From the IMG/VR virus record IMGVR_UViG_2744054912_000001: a stretch of DNA of 18,937 nt; one strand, written 5' to 3'. Below the pieces are notes generated by a model, which saw only the letters and a list, made by a program, of their open reading frames with translations, did not search any database and was not told where the DNA came from. Below, piece after piece: positions 255-9,378 of this stretch. The position numbers were made by a program, and so were the translations under genes. The stretch is from a virus. Taxonomy: Duplodnaviria > Heunggongvirae > Uroviricota > Caudoviricetes. The first letter of the stretch is position 1. Every line of letters begins with the position of its first letter.

Positions 255-1118
255 ATGGAAAGAGGTGTGGTATTTAGTGCATGCGAATTACTTAAAACCG
301 AGGATGGAAAAGGCATCCGTACAGGTAAATGGATTAGTCAATTAGAAATAAACTATCTATGTCTTTATTGGGATAAACTAGTTTCACCCACTAATAATAT
401 TATACATACAGCATTAAATAACGAGGATGAATTAGAAAAATGTGGATTGCTAACCAGACCTGTATATAGACATCATGGTTGTTTTGATGGCCAATATATG
501 GCTGATTTTTATGCTGAAACTCATGCCAAAACAATAGATATACTTAGGCATGCGGATTCTTCTGTCGATTGGCGCATGCATTTTTTAAGTGACCAAATAA
601 ACTTGGTGCCTGAATTATCTAGAACCTCAGAAGTGATACGTTTTGAGCTAGCAAATTTATTACCCGTTCCCACAGAAGATGTGCACCTACATGATATTCT
701 TGATTTCAAGGAAAGAAGAAAACCTGAATTAATCGCTTTACATGAATATCTTGATGAGCTTTACTTGGAAATAAAACGTTCTGGTGATATCAATCTTCAG
801 AAAGCAAAAGCTCTTTCTAATCTTAAACAAGCAATAAAGGATATTGAACGCTTAAATTGTGAAGTGTGGAAAAGTCCAATAAAATTTAGCATCTCTACTT
901 CCTTTGAGTTCGATTTTTCACAAATATTTAGTCTGGCGGGAACTGTTTTATCTATGTCAGTAGATTATCCTTATAATGTTATTGGAGGGGTAAGTAGTTT
1001 TGCTTATTTTTTGGGAGGATGCATAAAAATAAAGCCACAATTTCAACAAGTGTTATCATTAGGTAATGATAAATTAGTTTACATAAGCAAAGGAAAATCG
1101 GAGGGTATTATTTCCTGA
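255..1118 (+). CDS. Hypothetical protein of unknown function on a low-GC cargo island (candidate accessory or defence gene)
   Basis: 287-codon ORF with a strong RBS (AGGAG at 244-248, 6 nt before the ATG). A sampled 60-bp stretch is about 27% G+C versus about 62% in a sampled phage stretch. Codon usage is AT-biased and consistent across the ORF. I recognise no protein family. Confidence 0.6.
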   Translation: MERGVVFSACELLKTEDGKGIRTGKWISQLEINYLCLYWDKLVSPTNNIIHTALNNEDELEKCGLLTRPVYRHHGCFDGQYMADFYAETHAKTIDILRHADSSVDWRMHFLSDQINLVPELSRTSEVIRFELANLLPVPTEDVHLHDILDFKERRKPELIALHEYLDELYLEIKRSGDINLQKAKALSNLKQAIKDIERLNCEVWKSPIKFSISTSFEFDFSQIFSLAGTVLSMSVDYPYNVIGGVSSFAYFLGGCIKIKPQFQQVLSLGNDKLVYISKGKSEGIIS

Positions 1119-1137: not shown

Positions 1138-1545
1138 ATGAATGTTTTTTGTGAATATACTTATTTTAACCCTATAAATAATCAAGGTAATAAAGTGCCT
1201 CCTCGTATCCCGAAAGCCTGCCGTGCTCGAGGTTGCCGTAATACCACCACAGACCCGTCAGGCTACTGCGAAAGCCACAAAAGCGAAGGCTGGAAGCAAT
1301 ACAAGCCAGGCCAGTCCCGACACCAGCGCGGTTATGGTGCGAAATGGGATGTTATCCGTGAACGTGTGCTCAAGCGTGACAAAGGCCTGTGTCAGTTGTG
1401 TTTGCGTGCCGGTGTGGTGCGCGAGGCGAAAACCGTTGACCACATCATCCCTAAAGCACATGGCGGCACTGATGTCGACAGTAATCTGCAGAGTTTGTGC
1501 TGGCCGTGTCATAAGGCGAAGACGGCCCGTGAACGGCTGAAGTAA
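1138..1545 (+). CDS. Phage HNH endonuclease (HK97 gp74-like, packaging-associated)
   Basis: Translation has the HNH signature (C-x2-C ... DHIIPKAHGG ... N ... CWPCH). It sits immediately upstream of the terminase genes, as in HK97-like phages. The start is uncertain: the ATG at 1138 lies in the AT-rich island, and an in-frame GTG at 1195 with AAGG at 1184-1187 gives an N-terminus (VPPRIPKAC...) more typical of this family. Confidence 0.85.
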   Translation: MNVFCEYTYFNPINNQGNKVPPRIPKACRARGCRNTTTDPSGYCESHKSEGWKQYKPGQSRHQRGYGAKWDVIRERVLKRDKGLCQLCLRAGVVREAKTVDHIIPKAHGGTDVDSNLQSLCWPCHKAKTARERLK

Positions 1546-2165: not shown

Positions 2166-3895
2166 GCCGGAAATCTTACCCCAACGTAAATGCTGCCAAT
2201 CAGTATGCCCGGGATGTCGTGCGCGGAAAGATTGTGGCCTGCCAGTTTGTGATTCAGGCCTGCCAGCGCCATCTTGATGACCTGATGGCGGAAAAAAGTA
2301 AGTCGTTTCGTTACCGCTTCGACAAGGACCTGGCTGAACGGGCCGCCAAATTTATTCAGCTGTTGCCGCACACCAAGGGTGAGTGGGCATTTAAGAGGAT
2401 GCCCATCACGCTGGAGCCGTGGCAGCTCTTTGTGATCTGCTGCGCGTTTGGCTGGGTCAATAAAGGCTCCCGGCTGCGCCGCTTCCGGGAGGTGTATACC
2501 GAAATCCCCCGTAAGAACGGCAAATCGGCAATCTCTGCCGGTGTTGCCCTGTATTGTTTTGCCTGTGATAACGAGTTCGGCGCGGAAGTGTATTCCGGTG
2601 CCACGACAGAGAAACAGGCATGGGAAGTCTTTCGCCCGGCGCGACTGATGTGTAAACGCACACCCATGCTGACGGAAGCGTTCGGGATTGAGGTTAACGC
2701 CTCAAACATGAACCGTCCGGAGGATGGTGCGCGGTTTGAACCGCTGATCGGTAACCCCGGTGATGGTTCATCACCCCACTGTGCCGTGGTGGATGAATAT
2801 CACGAGCACGCCACAGATGCGCTTTACACCACGATGCTTACCGGGATGGGGGCGCGACGTCAGCCACTGATGTGGGCTATCACCACTGCCGGGTACAACA
2901 TTGAGGGACCGTGCTACGACAAGCGGCGGGAAGTCATCGAGATGCTCAACGGCTCGGTGCCTAACGATGAACTGTTCGGGATCATCTATACCGTTGATGA
3001 AGGTGACGACTGGACCGACCCGCAGGTGCTGGAAAAAGCCAATCCAAATATTGGCGTGTCGGTTTATCGCGAATTTTTGTTAAGTCAGCAGCAGCGTGCG
3101 AAAAATAACGCCCGTCTGGCAAACGTCTTTAAAACAAAACACCTCAATATCTGGGTGTCGGCGCGTTCGGCGTATTTCAACCTGGTGAGCTGGCAGAGCT
3201 GCGAGGATAAATCACTGACCCTTGAGCAGTTCGAGGGGCAGCCGTGCATTCTGGCCTTTGACCTGGCGCGTAAGCTGGATATGAACAGCATGGCGCGACT
3301 TTATACCCGCGAGATTGACGGTAAAACGCATTACTACAGTGTAGCCCCGCGTTTCTGGGTACCGTATGACACGGTGTACAGCGTCGAGAAAAATGAAGAT
3401 CGACGGACAGCCGAACGCTTTCAGAAATGGGTGGAAATGGGCGTTCTGACCGTTACCGATGGTGCGGAGGTGGATTATCGCTACATCCTCGAGGAGGCCA
3501 AAGCGGCGAACAAAATCAGCCCGGTCAGTGAGTCACCCATCGACCCCTTCGGGGCGACCGGGCTGTCGCATGACCTTGCTGATGAAGACCTGAACCCCAT
3601 CACCATCATTCAGAACTACACCAACATGTCCGATCCGATGAAAGAGCTGGAAGCGGCGATTGAATCGGGGCGCTTTCATCATGACGGCAATCCCATCATG
3701 ACCTGGTGTATCGGCAACGTGGTCGGCAAAACCATTCCGGGTAACGATGATGTGGTGAAGCCTGTCAAGGAGCAGGCGGAAAACAAAATCGATGGTGCAG
3801 TTGCGCTGATTATGGCGGTTGGCAGAGCCATGCTGTACGAGAAAGAAGACACGCTGTCTGACCACATTGAGTCCTATGGGATCCGCTCGCTTTAA
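2162..3895 (+). CDS. Terminase large subunit
   Basis: 577 aa, translationally coupled to terS, with length and sequence character of HK97-type large terminases (ATPase N-domain, nuclease C-domain), placed between terS and portal. Confidence 0.93.
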
Positions 3896-3906
3896 CTGAG
3901 GTAATT

Positions 3907-4089
3907 ATGATCATGCTGATTCTCGCGCCTCTGGTGGGCGTGCTGGGGGCGCTTTTGCTGGCGTATGGTGCCTGGCTGATTTATCCCCCGGCGGGGTTTG
4001 TTGTTGCCGGGGCGTTGTGCCTGTTCTGGTCGTGGCTGGTGGCGCGATATCTCGACCGTACACAGTCGTCTGTCGGCGGAGGTAAATAG
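3907..4089 (+). CDS. Small hydrophobic protein (two predicted transmembrane segments), unknown function
   Basis: 60 aa; GAGG RBS 7 nt upstream of the ATG. Two hydrophobic stretches ([22 protein letters not shown] and [17 protein letters not shown]). Its stop overlaps the portal GTG start by 1 nt. Same GC content as neighbours. Confidence 0.5.
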
Positions 4090-5330
4090 TGTTCTTTTCG
4101 GGATTATTTCAACGAAAAAGCGACGCACCGGTGACCACGCCAGCAGAGCTGGCGGATGCCATCGGGTTGTCCTACGACACCTATACCGGAAAGCAGATCA
4201 GCAGCCAGCGGGCCATGCGACTGACGGCGGTTTTTTCCTGTGTCAGGGTGCTGGCAGAGTCGGTCGGGATGTTGCCCTGCAATCTGTATCACCTGAACGG
4301 CAGCCTGAAACAGAGAGCCACCGGCGAGCGTCTGCATAAGCTGATCTCCACGCATCCCAATGGCTATATGACGCCGCAGGAGTTCTGGGAGCTGGTGGTC
4401 ACCTGTCTGTGCCTGCGGGGAAACTTTTACGCCTACAAAGTGAAAGCATTTGGCGAAGTGGCTGAACTGCTGCCCGTCGATCCCGGCTGTGTGGTACCGA
4501 AGCTTAACAGTAGCTGGGAGCCGGTCTATCAGGTCACATTCCCGGATGGCTCCACGGATGTACTGAGCCAGGAGGATATCTGGCATGTGCGCACGCTGAC
4601 GCTGGACGGACTGGTGGGGCTGAATCCCATCGCCTATGCCCGCGAGGCAATATCGCTGGCGGCAGCGACCGAAGAGCACGGGGCCAGACTGTTCAGCAAT
4701 GGCGCGGTGACGTCGGGTGTGTTGCGTACAGAGCAGACGCTGTCAGATCAGGCTTATGAGCGCCTGAAGAAAGATTTTGAGGAGCGTCACACCGGGCTTG
4801 GCAATGCTCACCGCCCGATGATCCTTGAGATGGGGCTGGACTGGAAGTCGATGGCGCTGAACGCCGAGGACAGCCAGTTCCTGGAAACCCGCAAGTTTCA
4901 GCTTGAAGAAATCTGTCGTCTGTTCCGGGTGCCGTTGCACATGGTGCAGAACACCGATCGCGCCACCTTCAACAATATCGAAGAGCTGGGGCTGGGATTT
5001 ATCAACTATTCACTGGTGCCGTATCTGACCCGCATCGAACAGCGGATCAACACCGGACTGGTACGAAAAAGTAAGCAGGGCGTTTATTACGCCAAATTTA
5101 ACGCCGGGGCGTTACTGCGCGGGGATATGAAGTCCCGTTTTGAAGCCTACGCCACCGGGATCAACTGGGGAATTTACTCTCCCAATGACTGCCGCGACCT
5201 GGAAGATATGAATCCGCGTCCCGGTGGTGATGTCTATCTCACACCGATGAACATGACCACGAAACCCTCCGATGGCAGTAAAGCCGGTAAGCAGAAGGAT
5301 AACGCCAATGCAGACGAAACAACGTCTTGA
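4089..5330 (+). CDS. Portal protein (HK97 family)
   Basis: 413 aa. GTG start with GGAGG at 4077-4081. Position between large terminase and prohead protease, and sequence character typical of HK97-family portals. Confidence 0.93.
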   Translation: MFFSGLFQRKSDAPVTTPAELADAIGLSYDTYTGKQISSQRAMRLTAVFSCVRVLAESVGMLPCNLYHLNGSLKQRATGERLHKLISTHPNGYMTPQEFWELVVTCLCLRGNFYAYKVKAFGEVAELLPVDPGCVVPKLNSSWEPVYQVTFPDGSTDVLSQEDIWHVRTLTLDGLVGLNPIAYAREAISLAAATEEHGARLFSNGAVTSGVLRTEQTLSDQAYERLKKDFEERHTGLGNAHRPMILEMGLDWKSMALNAEDSQFLETRKFQLEEICRLFRVPLHMVQNTDRATFNNIEELGLGFINYSLVPYLTRIEQRINTGLVRKSKQGVYYAKFNAGALLRGDMKSRFEAYATGINWGIYSPNDCRDLEDMNPRPGGDVYLTPMNMTTKPSDGSKAGKQKDNANADETTS

Positions 5331-7227: not shown

Positions 7228-7428
7228 ATGATCCTGAAACAAGATCTGAAATGGTCACCGGACGGTATGCGTGTTGAGGTCATTCGGGCCGGTGAGTATG
7301 ACGACGGGGCGCTTCCTGCCCGGGTGCAGGAGATTGCACTTCAGGCCGGGTTAGCAGAGCGCGGAACCAGTGCAAAAAGCAGTAAAGCGGCAAAAGAGAA
7401 AAAAGCCACGACCAGTAAAGAGGGCTGA
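7228..7428 (+). CDS. Small hypothetical protein with Lys/Ser-rich C-terminal tail
   Basis: 66-aa ORF in the operon orientation between the capsid and connector genes. No recognised family. Weak RBS. Confidence 0.45.
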   Translation: MILKQDLKWSPDGMRVEVIRAGEYDDGALPARVQEIALQAGLAERGTSAKSSKAAKEKKATTSKEG

Positions 7429-8161: not shown

Positions 8162-8642
8162 TGTTCAGCAGCCCGCCGAGATGCGCTTTAACCGCGCCCG
8201 TGTCCGGCGGGCGTTTGTCACGATTGGGCAGCGTCATATGCGTGATGCCCGTCGGCTGGTGATGCGCCGTGCGCGGTCGGCACCGGGTGAAAACCCCGGT
8301 TATCAGACCGGACGCCTGGCTCGTTCGATTGGTTATATGGTGCCGAGAGCCAGTAAAAAGCGAGCCGGTTTTATGACACGCATTGCCCCTAACCAGCGCA
8401 ACGGGAAGGGGAACCGGATGATCTCTGGTGACTTCTATCCGGCGTTTCTGTTTTTTGGTGTCCGGGGAGGAGCAAAACGTCGTCGTAGTCATCATCGTGG
8501 TGCATCCGGTGGCAGCGGCTGGCGACTGGCTCCACGTAATAACTTCATGGTGGAAACTCTTGAAAAGAACCGCAGCTGGACACGCTATTTTCTGGCGCGG
8601 GAATTGCGTAAATCACTGAAGCCGGAGCGACGACACAGATGA
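8136..8642 (+). CDS. HK97 gp10-like tail/neck component protein
   Basis: 168 aa. GGAGG at 8126-8130, 5 nt before the ATG. Basic, Arg-rich protein in the position occupied by gp10-family proteins in HK97-type head-tail joining modules. Confidence 0.7.
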   Translation: MATPFFHVDVQQPAEMRFNRARVRRAFVTIGQRHMRDARRLVMRRARSAPGENPGYQTGRLARSIGYMVPRASKKRAGFMTRIAPNQRNGKGNRMISGDFYPAFLFFGVRGGAKRRRSHHRGASGGSGWRLAPRNNFMVETLEKNRSWTRYFLARELRKSLKPERRHR

Positions 8643-9199
8643 AACTGACGCCTGTTATTGCTGCGCTGCGTGCCCGCTGCCCGTATTTTGAAAACCGGGT
8701 GGCAGGCGCGGCACAGTTCAAAAATCTGCCGGAGGTCGGAAAGCTGAGACTCCCGGCGGCGTATGTGGTACCGGGTGATGATTCTCCGGGAGAAAACAAA
8801 AGCCAGACCGACTACTGGCAGGAGCTGAAAGAGGGCTTCTCCGTGGTTGTCATACTGAGTAATGGGCGTGATGAGCGCGGTCAGTTTGCCTCGTATGATG
8901 TGGTGGACGATGTCCGGCAGATGCTCTTTAAGGCCCTGCTGGGCTGGAACCCGGAAGCGTGCGGTAACCCGATTACCTATGACGGCGGCACGCTGCTGGA
9001 TCTGAATCGTCATGAGCTGATTTATCAGTTCGATTTTTCGGTCATCAGCGAGCTGACTGAAGACGATACCCGCCAGCAGGATGACCTGAACAGTCTGGAT
9101 GAACTGCAAACGCTGGCGATTGATGTTGATTATCTCGAGCCCGGTAACGGGTCTGACGGCGATATCGAACATCACACCGAAATAACCCTTCCTTCCTGA
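8639..9199 (+). CDS. Tail completion / tail terminator-like protein (Mu gp37-like, DUF1834-type)
   Basis: 186 aa, immediately upstream of the sheath gene, the position of the tail terminator or completion protein in Mu-like contractile-tail modules. Family assigned from recall. Confidence 0.65.
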   Translation: MKLTPVIAALRARCPYFENRVAGAAQFKNLPEVGKLRLPAAYVVPGDDSPGENKSQTDYWQELKEGFSVVVILSNGRDERGQFASYDVVDDVRQMLFKALLGWNPEACGNPITYDGGTLLDLNRHELIYQFDFSVISELTEDDTRQQDDLNSLDELQTLAIDVDYLEPGNGSDGDIEHHTEITLPS

Positions 9200-9207
9200 G
9201 GATCCTC

Positions 9208-9378
9208 ATGTTTGTCAAACCTGTTAAAGGGCGGTCAGTTCCTGACCCTGCCCGCGGCGACCTTTTGCCCGCCGAAGGGCGAAATGTTGACGAGAACAAC
9301 TACTGGCTGCGCCGTGAAGCAGCGGGTGATATCCGGCGCGTGAATAAAAAGGTGAATACCGATGACGACAAGCTTTAA
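9208..9378 (+). CDS. Small conserved protein preceding tail sheath (DUF2635-like)
   Basis: 56-codon ORF not in the supplied track (below its length cutoff): MFVKPVKGRSVPDPARGDLLPAEGRNVDENNYWLRREAAGDIRRVNKKVNTDDDKL. Its end overlaps the sheath start by 17 nt. Mu-like tail clusters carry a small gene of this size at this position. Confidence 0.5.
   Translation: MFVKPVKGRSVPDPARGDLLPAEGRNVDENNYWLRREAAGDIRRVNKKVNTDDDKL

Follow-up and report, generated by a model that had tools for sequence, protein, structure and literature searches.

ymfR, a small phage gene for a predicted inner-membrane hairpin, adjoins the portal gene of HK97-type head modules

Why does a phage head operon carry a gene of 60 codons for a strongly hydrophobic protein between its large terminase gene (terL) and its portal gene? 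This question is raised by a stretch of 18,937 nt from a tailed phage (Caudoviricetes; IMG/VR record IMGVR_UViG_2744054912_000001), hereafter the window. The original prediction had noticed an ORF of 60 aa with two hydrophobic segments and a good ribosome-binding site wedged between terL and portal, and it had considered superinfection exclusion, a membrane-targeting toxin or a family-specific conserved ORF. As a description of the locus, this was accurate. The ORF runs from an ATG to a TAG on the plus strand, the terL stop codon (TAA, 3893-3895) is followed by a GAGG with a spacing of 5 nt to that ATG, the encoded protein has a GRAVY of 1.22, and the flanking genes match terminase and portal profiles (Table 1). 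Our results indicate that the ORF is almost certainly ymfR, a genuine late-operon gene of the PHROG 502 family that is coupled to the portal gene at the portal end of HK97-type head modules, and that its product is a 60-aa inner-membrane hairpin with ends predicted to be cytoplasmic and a YPPAG turn predicted to be periplasmic.

In PHROG scans of the long ORFs, ymfR is preceded by genes for an HNH endonuclease, the small terminase and TerL. It is followed by genes for the portal, prohead protease and major head protein, and then by those for an adaptor, head closure, neck, tail sheath, tube, tape measure and baseplate. By gene content, the window is the late operon of a temperate phage of the e14/SfI/SfII/ST64B/phiP27 type with a contractile-tail gene set. 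In agreement with this assignment, the 801 nt around ymfR share 96-98% identity with SfI/SfII/ST64B/phiP27-type phages. No RNA family was found anywhere in the window with Rfam.

Table 1. Features at the terL-ymfR-portal junction, in window coordinates
Feature	Position	Strand	Basis
terL, large terminase, 577 aa	2162..3895	+	Pfam TerL_ATPase + TerL_nuclease (PF03354 + PF20441)
Shine-Dalgarno GAGG of ymfR	3898..3901	+	sequence; same distance in L007, L010, L012, L013
ymfR coding sequence, 60 aa	3907..4089	+	identity, PHROG 502, purifying selection
Terminator-like GC hairpin then TTTTG, within TM1 codons	3925..3952	+	consensus scan
Predicted transmembrane helix 1 (TM1), residues 2-25	3910..3981	+	hydropathy, AlphaFold2 helix, invariant columns
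Tight turn Y26-P-P-A-G30	3982..3996	+	invariant Y26, P27, G30; core motif in distant members
Predicted transmembrane helix 2, residues 31-46	3997..4044	+	hydropathy, AlphaFold2, conserved columns
C-terminal tail, residues 47-60, predicted cytoplasmic	4045..4086	+	pN/pS
Portal Shine-Dalgarno GGAGGT within ymfR codons G58-G59	4078..4083	+	sequence
Stop/start overlap TAGTG	4087..4091	+	sequence
HK97-type portal gene, 413 aa	4089..5330	+	PF04860, E 4e-108

By sequence identity, the ORF itself is not novel, as it already bears the names ymfR and PHROG 502. The best E. coli match (NZ_CP172817) is 100% identical at the DNA level over 801 nt, and the ORF is annotated there as ymfR (WP_000605606.1, 'protein YmfR'), within an e14-type element adjoining icd. 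The protein matches PHROG 502, labelled 'membrane protein', over residues 1-55 (E 2.5e-28). YmfR of the E. coli K-12 element e14 has the identical sequence and is the same gene. The gene is known elsewhere as Sb3 of ST64B, L37 of phiP27 and a 'putative integral membrane protein' of SfI and SfII, and these versions, identical or 90-97% identical, occupy the same position between terL and portal. In K-12-type e14 remnants, however, terL and portal are truncated pseudogenes, whereas the module in the window is intact. Our searches of the literature on ymfR (b1150), ST64B and small membrane proteins encoded between terminase and portal found no functional study of the gene. It appears there among the e14 genes lost on excision, among the e14 genes induced with the SOS response, and as a non-specific first-round match in an overexpression screen of membrane-protein clones. 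The 801-nt region matches 1597 of 5426 complete E. coli genomes (about 30%). This E. coli/Shigella-type module also turns up, nearly unchanged (96-100%), in records assigned to unrelated organisms, namely a MAG labelled 'Bacillota bacterium' (JAEWTL010000102), Edwardsiella hoshinae NBRC 105699 and 'Enterococcus phage Efm 3-10' (OR844959). These copies look like contamination or mis-binning rather than a real host range.

A short ORF in a spacer, overlapped on the minus strand by two long antisense ORFs (3892..4128 and 3911..4063), might have arisen by chance and be no gene at all. We examined 80 IMG/VR loci that had been picked by portal similarity alone, so that the condition of the small ORF had no bearing on their choice. 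An intact ORF of 60 codons ending on the portal start was present in all 80, which comprised 34 distinct DNA sequences and 21 protein variants. Most of the changes among them were synonymous or conservative hydrophobic swaps, and codon 54, in the tail, was the hot spot of substitution. Conservation and synteny, which the original prediction had proposed to check, are borne out by these intact copies; the frameshifts or stops in close relatives that it had named as refuting evidence were not found. Decayed copies are rare and sporadic, comprising a frameshifted one in Shigella flexneri (L011) and several singleton clusters. Selection points the same way. When the window was compared with four relatives from Mangrovibacter and Citrobacter (DNA identity 63-68%), pN/pS in the ymfR frame was 0.25-0.32 over codons 1-47, the lowest of the six frames, and 0.8-1.3 over codons 48-60. 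Values in the five other frames ranged from 0.6 to 1.8, the two long antisense ORFs included, and the antisense ORFs are rejected as genes on this ground. At the same divergence, the GAGG keeps its position in the relatives (L007, L010, L012 and L013). Given intact copies in every portal-selected relative, purifying selection specific to one frame, a conserved ribosome-binding site and a deep family of 382 clusters, the probability of a chance ORF is negligible, and at the level of sequence evolution this reading is already refuted.

The depth of the family became apparent when 26 homologues (58-92% identity) were combined into a profile and 1.84 billion representative proteins were screened with it. 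At E <= 1e-3, this screen returned 382 clusters, nearly all of 45-110 aa, including a few tandem duplications. PHROG 502 was matched by all 48 distant members tested; Pfam has no family for any of these 48, and profile searches with YmfR itself gave neither a Pfam nor an NCBIfam family. One match, an ABC transporter (L015), was false and was discarded. Members occur in prophages from Gamma- to Betaproteobacteria, and the family is related to PHROG 7105. Thus, the suggestion that this might be a family-specific conserved ORF was right, and it understated the case, since the family extends over this whole range and stands nearly always before an HK97-type portal gene.

What is conserved in the protein is its membrane-embedded part. 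Kyte-Doolittle means over 11 residues reach 2.8 and 2.45 in the two hydrophobic segments, and AlphaFold2, run with a 26-sequence alignment, predicts helices at residues 2-25 and 27-56 with a break at Y26/P27 (mean pLDDT 73). In the first helix, the small residues G11, G14 and G21 are invariant, and the helix ends with a conserved Y20-G-A-W23. The turn from Y26 to G30 is the most conserved part of the whole family. Helix 2 keeps G35, C38, L39, W41 and S42 in enterobacterial members. The core shared by all members runs from the last part of helix 1 through the turn into the first part of helix 2; it begins roughly G-x-x-G-x-x-L-[VI], and residues A19-F31 of YmfR meet the hairpin core [SA][YF]GAW-x-x-Y-P-P-A-G-[FY]. 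The tails at both ends differ in length and sequence across the family, and the C-terminal one (codons 48-60) is near-neutral except for its terminal GG. Lysine and arginine average 1.1 in the N-terminal tail, 0.09 in the loop and 1.9 in the C-terminal tail. By the positive-inside rule, this distribution suggests that both ends are cytoplasmic (N-in/C-in) and that the YPPAG turn faces the periplasm, in line with the two-helix topology that hydropathy and AlphaFold2 give for the ORF. The predicted hairpin found no informative match in BFVD (best E 0.11, to uncharacterised proteins), and a sequence search of the PDB with YmfR gave no match. Four members (P0152, P0165, P0172 and P0211) are tandem duplications of the hairpin, with 102-122 aa and four predicted transmembrane helices, which hints that the hairpin unit may work as a dimer or a higher oligomer.

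The neighbours of the gene are as telling as its product. The full alignment of 48 distant members was too diverse for pattern-based retrieval of loci; with a 12-member subset of it, we retrieved 80 IMG/VR loci carrying distant family members. Of the 70 diverse loci with a readable downstream ORF, 69 had an HK97-type portal gene there, while only 55 of 65 had terL on the upstream side, the exceptions having an extra ORF or a small-terminase-like gene in its place. An extra ORF between the small gene and portal was seen once (L123). Even in a Betaproteobacterial MAG (L014), a member of 54 aa lies directly 5' of a portal gene whose product is only 34% identical to the portal of the window. By the company it keeps, ymfR belongs with the portal gene rather than with terL.

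The junction itself suggests how the two genes are connected. The ymfR stop codon (TAG, 4087-4089) and the portal start codon (GTG, 4089-4091) share one base, and such an overlap, in the form TGATG, TAATG or TAGTG, occurs in 25 of 32 diverse loci, with a spacing of 0-2 nt in three more. A GGAGG or GGGGG stands at the position of the portal Shine-Dalgarno sequence in diverged loci too. In enterobacterial YmfR proteins, the tail drifts except for the invariant G58 and G59, whose codons form, in the window, the portal Shine-Dalgarno sequence GGAGGT, and this explains why the two residues are kept. We therefore read TAGTG as a probable translational-coupling junction, at which ribosomes that end YmfR can reinitiate on portal. 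We found no published description of such a family-wide coupling to HK97-type portal genes.

Mosaic phages allow the linkage to be followed through recombination. In phages of the phi467 type, TerL is only 36% identical to that of the window, YmfR 77-92% and portal 86-99.8%. Conversely, SfV shares a TerL of 97.5% identity with the window, and its portal is only 28% identical and is preceded by a different small hairpin ORF. Over 24 loci, YmfR identity correlates better with portal identity (Spearman rho 0.73) than with TerL identity (0.51). By alignment, the breakpoints lie within the last ~6-20 codons of terL (window ~3835..3895), at about 3835 for SfV and about 3877 for phi467. Since both fall inside these last codons, the exchanged block consists of the terL C-terminal codons, ymfR and portal, and the C-terminal tail of TerL appears to be inherited with ymfR and portal, not with the rest of the terminase. 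With only 183 nt between two co-exchanged segments, the linkage of ymfR to portal may be partly hitch-hiking.

A further premise of the original prediction, that terL and portal directly abut in most HK97-type operons, needs to be narrowed. It holds for the HK97 lineage proper, where the two genes abut and none of 80 HK97-like loci has a small ORF between them. It does not hold for modules of the SfV, D3, PY54 and e14 types, each of which has a small hydrophobic ORF in this position. In SfV (U82619, L097), it is an unannotated two-TM ORF of 53 aa (2289..2450) that overlaps both neighbours, and an ORF of this kind precedes portal in all 80 SfV-like portal loci. The SfV protein belongs to a separate family (PHROG 7105), matches the YmfR family HMM and PHROG 502 weakly (E 5.7e-6), and has a degenerate core motif, CGVYLQFGMAPAL, in place of that of YmfR; its partner portal is the one with 28% identity to that of the window. 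PY54 (NC_005069, L182) has an unannotated YmfR-family ORF of 65 aa at 2295..2492, in the gap between terL and portal. In SfIV (KC814930), a YmfR-family match around 2382..2483, in the same gap, is likewise without an annotated feature. Pseudomonas phage D3 has orf3 (NP_061499.1, hypothetical protein, PHROG 4810), whose product of 54 aa is strongly hydrophobic and, by eye, a two-helix hairpin. The gene overlaps both the terL stop and the start of the HK97-type portal gene and is present in 79 of 79 D3-like loci. Its product has no detectable homology to YmfR (HMM score about -2), and it may be an analogue or a homologue diverged beyond recognition. We found no published description of the unannotated SfV, SfIV and PY54 copies, of the D3 analogue or of the absence in HK97.

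Several functions can be imagined for such a protein. The role in superinfection exclusion or as a membrane toxin put forward in the original prediction amounts to a moron-type gene with a benefit for the lysogen. PHROG 502 is indeed placed in the category 'moron, auxiliary metabolic gene and host takeover', and small inner-membrane proteins encoded inside structural operons, such as gp15 of HK97, can block DNA entry. Yet no positive support emerged for this role. A consensus scan found no promoter-like site between 3400 and 3907, and the GC content of the gene (0.56-0.58) is that of its flanks (0.52-0.61); its strong T-over-A skew is explained by the hydrophobic codons, which give such a skew. 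PADLOC gave no match for YmfR, for the SfV and D3 small ORFs or for two distant members, and a chance-level match (LeoBC, E 0.42) for the PY54 ORF; no holin family was matched either. The gene is present in every close relative and coupled to portal. It is also found across different tail types (the window has a contractile tail, and D3 and PY54 are siphoviruses), whereas exclusion is usually specific to a tail or entry route. A moron is thus very unlikely. The only terminator-like hairpin, within the TM1 codons, has a GC-rich stem of 12 pairs, and the SfII record carries it as a 'putative rho-independent terminator'. Against shuffles, it folds with a z-score of only -1.3, and the stem is not kept in phiP27, L007, L010, L012 or L013. 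We rejected a role in attenuating transcription between terL and portal as unsupported; the hairpin probably just follows from the Gly, Ala and Leu codons. The hairpin protein might instead act as a pinholin- or toxin-like permeabiliser that oligomerises late and lowers the proton-motive force, serving lysis timing or acting as an accessory holin or antiholin. Class II holins and pinholins, such as S68 of phage 21, have two transmembrane helices, an N-in/C-in topology and a Gly/Ala-rich first helix. YmfR resembles them in its size of about 60 aa, its predicted layout, its Gly/Ala-rich first helix and its short basic C-terminal tail, and the concentration of conservation in the membrane-embedded core rather than in the cytoplasmic tails, as well as late expression at low dose, would suit such a function. 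However, YmfR matches no holin family in Pfam or PHROGs and has no consistent dual-start motif, no endolysin or spanin gene adjoins it and no lysis gene was recognised in the window. Its constant partner is portal, not an endolysin, and the permeabiliser reading leaves both this position and the stop/start overlap unexplained. We regard it as unlikely.

The coupling invites a simpler reading, in which ymfR is a leader ORF whose translation sets the amount of portal by termination-reinitiation and whose peptide is unimportant. The portal Shine-Dalgarno sequence within the last codons, the overlap of stop and start in most loci, the neutral C-terminal tail with its constrained GG, and the non-homologous ORF of the same size in D3 are all as this reading would have it. 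Against it, the peptide core and its Gly positions are kept at 45-57% identity where portal falls to 28-35%, codons 1-47 are under the purifying selection described above, and HK97 couples portal directly to terL without any leader. A leader with a dispensable product is accordingly rated as highly improbable. Finally, four records (ON470603, ON470584, ON470580 and PQ793804) label the YmfR homologue by automatic annotation as 'head-tail joining protein W'. In lambda, W likewise has gene A (large terminase) on one side and gene B (portal) on the other. The likeness to gpW is only positional, that of a small gene between large terminase and portal. gpW is a soluble head-tail joining protein and YmfR consists of two hydrophobic helices, no gpW-family Pfam profile matched at E <= 1, and genes for an adaptor, head closure and neck are already present in the window. 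The gpW reading is effectively refuted, with next to no probability left to it, and the labels look like names transferred by position or by pipeline.

The reading that we prefer for the function of YmfR, in a tentative way and as possible rather than probable, is that it couples portal synthesis and prohead initiation to the inner membrane. Late in infection, YmfR would enter the inner membrane as it is being translated. A ribosome terminating on ymfR would reinitiate on portal, so that portal synthesis would take place at the membrane surface, and the nucleation of the dodecamer ring and prohead initiation would follow there. The membrane placement of portal synthesis is deduced from the coupling of portal translation to YmfR. 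As HK97 itself lacks such a gene, YmfR would be accessory rather than essential. Under the proposed mechanism, it would be neither a moron nor a lysogenic-conversion gene. T4 offers the functional precedent of a viral helper that acts with the portal at the inner membrane, although genes 40 and 20 of T4 are not neighbours. YmfR would be a helper analogous in function, not homologous, to the gp40/gp20 pair, between which and YmfR homology is not expected. In T4, assembly of the portal initiator takes place on the inner membrane and involves gp40, a viral chaperone (PMC9958956).

Strict adjacency and overlap with portal, cytoplasmic residues that are unconserved and a non-homologous hairpin at the D3 position all fit the proposal of membrane-placed portal synthesis. 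Since the cytoplasmic parts of YmfR are tiny and near-neutral, a specific contact between YmfR and portal is unlikely, and the model rests on localisation by coupled translation. On the other hand, HK97 builds heads without the small gene, and in L123 an ORF separates the small gene from portal. Moreover, targeting alone would not account for the strong conservation of the turn facing the periplasm, and this conservation hints at a specific partner in the membrane or the periplasm. Whatever probability the named functions leave falls to an intramembrane role not yet imagined, for example binding of a host membrane protein. A more general form of the proposal would hold that the hairpins of PHROG 502, 7105 and 4810 are an overlooked and widespread component of HK97-type head modules that places portal synthesis and prohead initiation at the membrane through coupled translation. 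This wider claim is quite doubtful at present. If it were true, membrane-nucleated head assembly, so far a peculiarity of T4, would be common among temperate phages of Proteobacteria.

As a gene, ymfR is ordinary, a named and uncharacterised y-gene present in about 30% of the complete E. coli genomes. More useful is the pattern, in which a conserved membrane hairpin stays fixed to the portal gene across portal lineages that are only ~30% identical. This pattern provides a testable handle on two questions, whether portal or prohead assembly of the HK97 type includes a membrane step and what a very common E. coli small protein does. It also entails corrections to existing annotations, which concern the unannotated copies in SfV, SfIV and PY54, the 'gpW' mislabels and the probable start of the SfV portal gene. 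The latter is annotated as 2392..3666, from a GTG at 2392, which is probably 48 nt too early. Because of homology to other portals and of the Shine-Dalgarno sequence AAGGGGGA, the likely start is the GTG at 2440.

Other genes of the window also deserve mention. The HNH endonuclease gene (1138..1545, plus strand, PHROG 144) lies just 5' of the small terminase gene, the usual arrangement for HNH-assisted cos cleavage, and it is preceded by an ORF of 287 aa without known function (255..1118, PHROG 23128). Two more small conserved ORFs are found on the plus strand, one of 66 aa after the major head protein gene (7228..7428, PHROG 1020) and one of 56 aa just before the tail sheath gene (9208..9378, PHROG 208). 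Between the neck and sheath genes, an ORF of 186 aa (8639..9199, plus strand) matches PHROG 209, which is labelled 'portal protein'. As the true portal gene is the one that follows ymfR, this label looks wrong for that family.
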